NCBI GenBank assembly: GCA_951406725.2
Contig: OX597825.1
Span: 78,430,001-78,494,000, forward strand
DNA: 64,000 bases
Direction: 5' to 3'
DNA from: Octopus vulgaris
Taxonomy: Eukaryota
Shown: piece by piece, positions 1,311 through 53,326 of the stretch
How the letters are laid out: the number at the start of each line of letters is the position of its first letter
Numbering within the stretch: the stretch's first letter is position 1
The notes under the pieces: generated by a model
Database searches by the model: none
Told to the model about the DNA's origin: nothing
The model's input: only the letters and a program-made list of their open reading frames with translations
Program-made: the position numbers and the translations under genes

Positions 1311-1356
1311 AACACAACGTTTCGGCTGATATATCTTCCAGACTTCTTCAGGTGTC
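1311..1356 (-). ncRNA. Minimal type-I hammerhead ribozyme motif (mirror copy)
   Basis: Reverse complement reads gacac CTGAAGA a gtctg..cagcc GAAA cg TT gtgtt; one helix II mismatch. Confidence 0.6.
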
Positions 1357-1604: not shown

Positions 1605-1650
1605 GACACCTGAAGAAGGCTGGAGAGTATATCAGTCGAAACGTTGTGTT
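1605..1650 (+). ncRNA. Minimal type-I hammerhead ribozyme motif
   Basis: gacac CTGAAGA a ggctg-gagagtatat-cagtc GAAA cg TT gtgtt: helix I gacac/gtgtt, helix II ggctg/cagtc, palindromic AACGTT in place of helix III. Confidence 0.7.
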
Positions 1651-24772: not shown

Positions 24773-25000
24773 CTCATCTGTAATAATATTAAAAGGAATT
24801 AATGTTGTGGTGGAATTGTCATTTCTCGTTCAAACATTCTATTTTTTTTTTACCTCTTTATAGCGAAGGGAGTGAGAAAAAAAAAAGAGGAAAATGCTAG
24901 TTGACTGGAGTGTTATAGTACTTATCCTTGACTGGTAGGGACCTGTACATATGTGCATAAATGTATCTGTGTGTGTATGCGTTCATATATGTATATATAT

Positions 25001-25080
<80 letters not shown>

Positions 25081-25085
<5 letters not shown>

Positions 25086-25817
25086 ATAGTCAAAATGCGA
25101 TAAAATAAATTATTATCGCCGGTGATCTAGCACAAAAGACATTTCAGCCATAGGCTATATGTTATTCATATATAAGTACATTAAAAGGCTTCTAAAAGAA
25201 GAAGTGAGTACTAGATACACAAAAGTTGGATAAATTCAGTGAAATGAAAATTAAAAACGTTTACAAACTCGGTTCATCTTATACTGCAGTTTCGTCTTTT
25301 TCAGCATTAAATATAATTTACCTGCTCAGGTCAGATTCTTCAGTAAGCAACCTGTTATTCTAGAAGTGCATATCAATAGAAGCATGTGCGACTCTACTAA
25401 TTTGCTTTCTCTAACTTTTCAAATCATTGCGCAGACGCAGAACATACCCGACAAACAGAGGGGGTTCTGGTATAGGGTCTAACGGTCAAAATTTATCGAG
25501 AAATACGTAAACATAGTCAAAATGCGATATGTTTACGTATTTCTCGATAACTTTTGACCGTTAGACCCTATACCAGAACCCCCTCTGTTTGTCGGGTATG
25601 TTCTGCGTCTGCGCAATGATTTGAAAAGTTAGAGAAAGCAAATTAGTAGAGTCGCACATGCTTCTATTGATATGCACTTCTAGAATAACAGGTTGCTTAC
25701 TGAAGAATCTGACCTGAGCAGGTAAATTATATTTAATGCTGAAAAAGACGAAACTGCAGTATAAGATGAACCGAGTTTGTAAACGTTTTTAATTTTCATT
25801 TCACTGAATTTATCCAA

Positions 25818-25820
<3 letters not shown>
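25081..25820. mobile_element. PLE-like pseudo-LTR cassette: short direct repeat plus ~290 bp inverted repeat, embedded in (TA)n
   Basis: 25223-25514 vs 25529-25820 inverted (one mismatch seen); taaacatagtcaaaatgcgata repeated at 25081 and 25508; hammerhead core in each arm. Confidence 0.8.
25696..25765 (+). ncRNA. Type-I hammerhead ribozyme motif (mirror on minus strand at 25278-25347)
   Basis: ctta CTGAAGA atct...agac GAAAC tgca GTA taag: helix I ctta/taag, intact core, GUA triplet, palindromic ACTGCAGT helix III; first helix II pair is an A-C mismatch. Confidence 0.75.
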
Positions 25821-25863
<43 letters not shown>

Positions 25864-53126: not shown

Positions 53127-53326
53127 TTATTTACATTATTTACATTCAAAGCTGGGTTCTCATTCCTAAGGAATGAGAACCCAAGTTCGTAATTTCCCCC
53201 AGACACCTGAAGAAGGCTGGAGGATCTTTCAGCCGAAACGTTGTGTTAACAACAAACAAGATGTGGACAAATATCCATCAATTGTAAATAATGTACATAA
53301 TTCCTCGTCTCTTAAATATAGAACTG
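53127..53326 (+). mobile_element. SINE family D, 5'-truncated and inverted, inserted in the LINE 3' end
   Basis: Matches 1570-1735; imperfect TSD aaac(g/t)tctgg(a/g)aa at 53114 and 53327; palindromic junction gggttctcattcct|aggaatgagaaccc. Confidence 0.85.
53202..53247 (+). ncRNA. Minimal type-I hammerhead ribozyme motif
   Basis: gacac CTGAAGA a ggctg-gaggatcttt-cagcc GAAA cg TT gtgtt; helices conserved while loop II differs from the 1605 copy. Confidence 0.7.

Follow-up and report, generated by a model that had tools for sequence, protein, structure and literature searches.

How did a small non-coding unit with a hammerhead ribozyme motif come to stand as an almost perfect foldback inside a TA microsatellite, and is the foldback a working RNA device or a trace of the way in which the element was inserted? 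The question is raised by a locus on contig OX597825.1 of the Octopus vulgaris assembly GCA_951406725.2, lying in a stretch of 64,000 nucleotides (positions 78,430,001 to 78,494,000, forward strand) that was analysed as a whole and is referred to here as the window. Unless stated otherwise, coordinates are those of the window.

Structure of the locus and its hammerhead motifs

The original prediction described a unit of about 427 bp whose start is repeated, followed by a near-perfect inversion of about 290 bp, all inside (TA)n. Each part of this description was borne out. The 22-bp direct repeat (25081-25102 and 25508-25529) is exact, with a period of 427; the inverted arms (25223-25515 and 25528-25820) are 293 bp long, are separated by a 12-nt spacer and have a single mismatch, at 25492/25551; and TA arrays occupy both flanks (24985-25082 and 25820-25859). 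The features are as follows.

24985..25080, no strand: left (TA)n target microsatellite (array mapped at 24985-25082)
25081..25529, minus: long arm, 1.05 units, sense on the minus strand, with its 3' end at the distal end site of the family
25081..25102, minus: copy of the 22-bp direct repeat lying at the long arm's 3' end
25081..25224, minus: predicted 3' RNA domain (structure prediction, modest covariation)
25266..25357, minus: type I hammerhead motif of the long arm (core 25343-25282)
25508..25529, minus: copy of the 22-bp direct repeat that belongs to the preceding unit (head-to-tail junction), ending at the inversion joint
25528..25820, plus: short inverted arm, unit positions 15-307, with its 3' end at a minor upstream site
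25686..25777, plus: type I hammerhead motif of the right arm (core 25700-25761, predicted cut after 25761)
25821..25859, no strand: right (TA)n target microsatellite (from array mapping)

Read in the ribozyme sense, the left arm runs for 1.05 units along the minus strand; the right arm, on the plus strand, covers unit positions 15-307. The arms are joined at their 5' ends via a 2-nt TA microhomology, and their 3' ends point outward into (TA)n. The distal end site corresponds to unit position ~447, i.e., 200 nt past the predicted cut; near the minor site of the short arm, three other copies end as well (about 309-313). Among the contigs of eight public sequencing runs, the head-to-tail joint is present in those of four runs, and the inversion joint is covered in none.

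Each arm was expected to carry a hammerhead core with a ctta/taag helix I and a long helix II, and all these elements were located, with one motif per arm: the core CUGAAGA...GAAAC-UGCA-GUA lies at 25700-25761 (plus) and 25343-25282 (minus), with helix I CUUA/UAAG. The description of the core as intact holds for the invariant core residues and is otherwise overstated, as A10.1-C11.1 replaces the conserved G-C pair closing helix II. Thus, the window motif has a long, two-part helix II whose first pair is A10.1 opposite C11.1, and a helix III of 2 bp with a palindromic loop. Among 144 motifs, this first pair is G10.1-C11.1 in 121, A-C in 22 (both arms of the window copy included) and G-U in one; A10.1-C11.1 occurs in 18 of the 21 motifs of subfamily A, to which the window copy belongs. 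G10.1-C11.1 is called highly conserved in the available text of PMC4209133, where hammerheads with a short helix III and a palindromic loop are said to act as dimers and to cleave weakly alone. We found no published measurement of an A10.1-C11.1 hammerhead. The existence of a lineage with this pair suggests that a perfect ribozyme is not required for spread.

A set of 28 motifs from four subfamilies has an invariant core; in helix II, 28 cells carry double changes compared with 10.2 in shuffles, a count inflated by the relatedness of the sequences; helix II cells are paired in 88.7% of cases versus 31-42% when the partners are slid. A 19-nt hammerhead word has 93 exact matches in the genome and its reversed control none, and the motif is therefore not due to chance. 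An Rfam scan of the locus gave no hammerhead match at E<=5, returning only microsatellite-driven miRNA matches; the Rfam models miss the form with a long helix II. In predicted folding, the unit monomer has no advantage over shuffles (z -1.25). An intron reading, based on a GT donor within helix II, was dropped, since its G is private to the window copy.

With a single motif per strand, the window copy should be unable to excise a monomer or to form a dimer in cis. Two consecutive same-strand units with complete ribozymes, the mark of an active locus according to Li et al., are absent from it and occur at other loci of the family (e.g., L007, L022 and L222). No monomer circles are predicted to arise from the window copy, which would be a dead end in this respect.

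The window also holds three hammerhead motifs with a short helix II, at 1311-1351 (minus), 1610-1650 (plus) and 53207-53247 (plus), which belong to an unrelated family. The first two form another head-to-head pair, located within trinucleotide repeats.

A non-coding family and its relatives

The 2.8-Gb genome contains 85 matches to the unit, and a variant hammerhead word has 82 matches compared with none for its reversed control. All loci obtained from the unit matches, the 19-nt word and the variant word, 132 in total, were typed; because this sampling requires a ribozyme word, it favours two-armed loci. They fall into subfamilies A (427 bp, 22 loci, including the window copy), D (430 bp, 39 loci), B (404 bp, 45 loci) and C (397 bp, 26 loci). 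A relative, E, has a 445-bp unit and 140 matches, and a 20-mer common to the relatives is matched 703 times. Of the 132 typed loci, 123 have a TA run on one side or both, 100 of them on both. Coding sequence contiguous with the unit was found at none of the 132, and the window copy holds no ORF combining a reverse transcriptase (RT) with a GIY-YIG domain, as an autonomous Penelope-like element (PLE) would. The view of the locus as a non-coding element of PLE type or retrozyme-like kind, with further copies in the genome, including tandem ones, is therefore upheld.

Arrays of subfamily B reach five identical units, and an array of relative E contains ten spaced matches; the arms in subfamilies A and D are shorter than 1.9 units. 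The presence of an arm longer than one unit, together with head-to-tail junctions, implies a tandem or circular template, as had been proposed from the window copy. A cleaved linear monomer as the main template is unsupported: only 4 of 175 5' ends lie within 5 nt of the cut, where 4.6 would be expected (in a biased sample), and of 112 distinct contexts after the cut, 3 begin at it within microhomology, with no pile-up. Private variants shared between the copies of a locus, which could reveal rolling-circle replication, amount to 15 sites across 67 multi-copy loci, too few to decide the matter.

By its non-coding, head-to-tail repeated 427-bp unit, the family falls within the size range of retrozymes (about 150-450 bp), and each unit contains one type I hammerhead with a conserved core. 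It resembles the metazoan non-LTR retrozymes, as these are presented in the available text of PMC7229834 and bioRxiv 10.64898/2026.07.22.740005 (Li, Clavereau and Pollet 2026), in having low-GC units of 397-445 bp, in ranging from monomers to tandem arrays and in co-occurring with PLEs. It differs from that description in its long, two-part helix II, in the A10.1-C11.1 pair of subfamily A, in a monomer that folds no better than chance and, for the window copy, in the want of two ribozymes on the same strand. The word "inverted" does not appear in the main text of PMC7229834 (Cervera and de la Pena 2020); pairs of hammerheads on opposite strands, 100-700 bp from each other, are mentioned in the available part of an earlier paper (Cervera and de la Pena 2014, PMC4209133).

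The likeness to insertions of EN+ PLEs extends to the arrangement of the copies. As far as the available portions of PMC8557442, PMC3846280 and PMC11167929 describe them, inverted pLTR-plus-tail insertions of EN+ PLEs share with the present locus a partial tandem, an inverted 5'-truncated copy placed head-to-head, one end longer than the other, a (TA)n or AT-rich target, and a hammerhead that has a palindromic loop on helix III and precedes the end sites. Unlike them, the window copy lacks an ORF and has a tail of about 90 nt instead of the 30-40 nt in print, this family lacks the extra unpaired base before helix II, and its sister subfamilies B and C lack the second end site and the inversion. 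Among titles and the beginnings of abstracts, no paper on the family was found; supplements may hold Hydra or octopus consensus entries. The window copy is one recent insertion and a new addition to the known class of non-coding retrozyme-like repeats.

The expectation that a coding PLE would share the unit failed in the PLE loci sampled. No significant DNA similarity to the unit was detected in 30 GIY-YIG, 20 longer Neptune-type and 12 Hydra-like loci, which represent a small part of the thousands of PLE loci in the genome, and no coding parent emerged from a GIY-YIG family search, a Hydra-like protein search or four hammerhead or flank patterns. The genome does contain an intact 899-aa Hydra-like family with RT and GIY-YIG-like domains (RW., DKT, CxxC and CxH motifs, without CCHH), which has long-helix-II hammerheads, TA targets and pairs of long and short ends. 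By analogy, this family probably represents the likeliest kind of mobiliser; its pLTR has no similarity to the unit, and it is therefore not the parent. It shares features of the Hydra-clade PLEs as outlined in section 11 of PMC8557442, except that the CxCX5C linker is missing. A general pattern for hammerheads with a long helix II is matched 5,045 times in the genome against 8, and the coding Hydra-like PLEs examined in this genome resemble the family in hammerhead style, in their TA targets and in the pairing of long with short ends. An alternative mobiliser is an intact 781-aa RT/GIY-YIG family of Neptune type, which likewise ends in (TA)n and has no DNA similarity to the unit.

Several observations made along the way are recorded here. 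The Hydra-like PLE with the 899-aa ORF (L303-L308) is very young: of the 150 loci scored, 82 are identical over its last 151 residues, some of them full tandems. In the intact Neptune-type family (L147-L154, 3' region), there is an upstream ORF that reaches 479 aa, and the TA-joined end is preceded by a hammerhead-like motif whose core has U3-A8. Upstream of the ribozyme, at 25412-25450 (minus), lies a 39-bp block with the core GCGTCTGCGC; no other part is conserved as well between subfamily A and the distant relative E (85%), and the block is a possible promoter element. The antisense strand of the unit, at 25481-25498 (plus) in the window and at locus L345, matches positions -14 to +4 of a U2 snRNA gene variant in 18 of 18 letters, compared with 16 of 18 in two other variants and a longest match of 17 in 500 shuffles; by eye, no matching upstream box stands at the U2 spacing. 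The match may reflect a start or target motif common to both, or be accidental.

Origin of the head-to-head copies

Head-to-head arrangements were found at 15 of the 22 loci of subfamily A and at 27 of the 39 of subfamily D, and all 13 opposite-strand hammerhead pairs among the 76 loci obtained with the 19-nt word are head-to-head. Thirteen further apparent inversions (11 in B, 2 in C) represent an internal hairpin and were left out of these counts. Thus, the window foldback is not special; it is a routine insertion product of its lineage. A distal end on one arm is paired with an upstream end on the other in all 15 inverted copies of A and in 23 of the 27 of D. Twelve of the 15 upstream ends in A fall at unit positions 348-370, mostly where TA-like letters of the unit itself merge with the target; end points free of TA-run overlap in BLAST lie at about 355-362 and at 307. 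The arms are not nested, in either direction, at 13 of the 42 inverted loci, and 21 of the 42 have joints with an overlap of 2-5 nt.

These regularities, in our opinion, make it likely that the RT and endonuclease of a PLE, acting in trans, wrote the copy into the TA microsatellite by priming cDNA from both cut ends, and that the foldback is a by-product of insertion. A tandem copy elsewhere would be transcribed into a multimer or circle, in keeping with the head-to-tail arrays seen in the genome. The PLE protein would then bind the structured 3' domain and cut both strands of (TA)n, as another PLE does in vitro. One end would prime at the distal site and the other at the upstream site, giving the observed end pairs, and both cDNAs would halt at variable points and be joined by microhomology of 2-5 nt, leaving the head-to-head junctions found at these loci.

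The available text of PMC8557442 and PMC3846280 presents an inverted 5'-truncated copy plus a tail as typical of PLEs. Purified PLE protein nicks each of the two strands and extends it; two internal RT start sites bound the tail, and insertion does not need the ribozyme of the element (PMC11167929). The same study found no strand difference in the start site, which counts against two-end priming; so do, for the window copy only, a short arm wholly within the long arm, a 12-nt loop and the use of a minor end site.

These last properties are those expected from self-priming, in which the first cDNA folds back by means of 2 nt and serves as its own template before being joined to the target; for the rotifer Penelope, an antisense RNA has been proposed in this role. 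Such a model is put forward in the available part of PMC3846280, and it would account for the nested short arm, the short loop and the TA microhomology of the window copy, for containment-compatible arms at 29 of the 42 inverted loci, and for one private A>G variant common to both window arms. The remaining 13 loci, with arms that are not nested, need two RNA-templated cDNAs. Moreover, the outer ends of the second arms cluster at a site shared with single-arm copies, which snap-back does not predict, and the distances of the inner ends vary widely between loci. Self-priming is therefore an unlikely origin of these copies, with some chance of being correct, and two-end priming is retained as the preferred account. 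The private A>G (sense strand) lies at 25321 and 25722, and a copy of subfamily D carries it too, on a single arm. Editing of the RNA, made permanent when it was reverse transcribed, is one possible origin of the change; inheritance from a source copy outside the sample is another.

The window copy is among the youngest of its family. Its arms differ at 1 of 293 positions, compared with 49 of 2222 multiply covered sites across 13 loci of A and 186 of 5131 across 24 loci of D, in agreement with the young age originally assigned to it. The nearest other copy differs from it at 3 of 332 positions, and a source locus was not identified.

The hairpin that read-through transcription would produce had been considered a potential ADAR or Dicer substrate that would also mask the ribozyme. 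Such a hairpin is physically expected (predicted -554 kcal/mol over 738 nt), and any read-through transcript, in which the antisense arm should come first in either direction, would contain the 293-bp duplex. That the foldback is a selected dsRNA device, masking the ribozyme or silencing the family, is nevertheless highly improbable: the lineage produces this shape by default, the arms of older copies have diverged to the extent given above, the window copy is itself among the youngest, and the 90 longest of the 162 complex frames in the window gave no Pfam match above the curated cut-off that would mark a host exon. Near-identical arms would also be expected of an assembly or library foldback artefact, which we consider scarcely credible, as the arms are unequal, differ at one base and lie between different unique flanks, and the copy follows the end-site rule of 41 other loci, in which the arms have diverged by up to several percent.

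A clade without inversions and the predicted 3' RNA domain

Among the typed loci, inversions are nearly confined to subfamilies A and D. Only 1 of 45 loci of B and none of 26 of C are inverted (42/61 for A and D versus 1/71 for B and C; Fisher p about 2e-18, with copies that are not independent), and the upstream site is used by 1 of 70 single-arm copies of B and C. Rooted toward relative E, which sits on a long branch, a tree built from 51 full units is a ladder of D, A and then a clade of B and C (100/99); relative E, which is young and lies outside A-D, is head-to-head at 9 of the 17 loci examined. The loss of inversions in B and C is one evolutionary event.

B and C have two deletions in common, of 11-12 and 19-20 nt. 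The predicted 3' domain consists of a long closing stem around a multibranch loop, in which hairpins h1 and h3 flank the main upstream end site, and of a terminal hairpin ahead of the distal end site. In this prediction the deletions take the 3' halves of the two hairpins flanking the upstream site and convert the multibranch loop into a plain stem-loop. Covariation in the domain is modest: 90% of it is paired, and the count of double changes is reached by 20 of 500 shuffles. Subfamily C retains the same TA-like letters at the upstream site, yet does not use the site.

As modelled, the loss of the two predicted hairpins may point to a signal for inversions. It is conceivable, and we propose it tentatively, that B and C are a natural knockout of two-ended priming and that the branched RNA domain is the cis-signal for a second cDNA start by the PLE enzyme. 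A switch of the mobilising enzyme, or altered spacing, would explain the loss equally well. Among titles and the beginnings of abstracts, no paper on a cis-signal for PLE inversions was found, and the available text of PMC8557442 names the origin of tandem and inverted PLE insertions as an open question.

The locus taken singly is ordinary, one of many such palindromes, and its value lies in the family. The subfamilies offer a matched pair of RNAs of about 400 nt, both recently mobile in one genome, that are two small deletions apart and differ almost all-or-none in the use of the second start. If the proposed role of the branched domain is correct, they constitute a minimal substrate pair for studying how Penelope inverted repeats form; as an in vitro PLE assay exists (PMC11167929), this pair could test the mechanism of inverted insertion directly.

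One locus of subfamily B departs from the usual target: the 5' end of its five-unit array (L222:3342-3400) adjoins not (TA)n but another element's tail of TCAA repeats.
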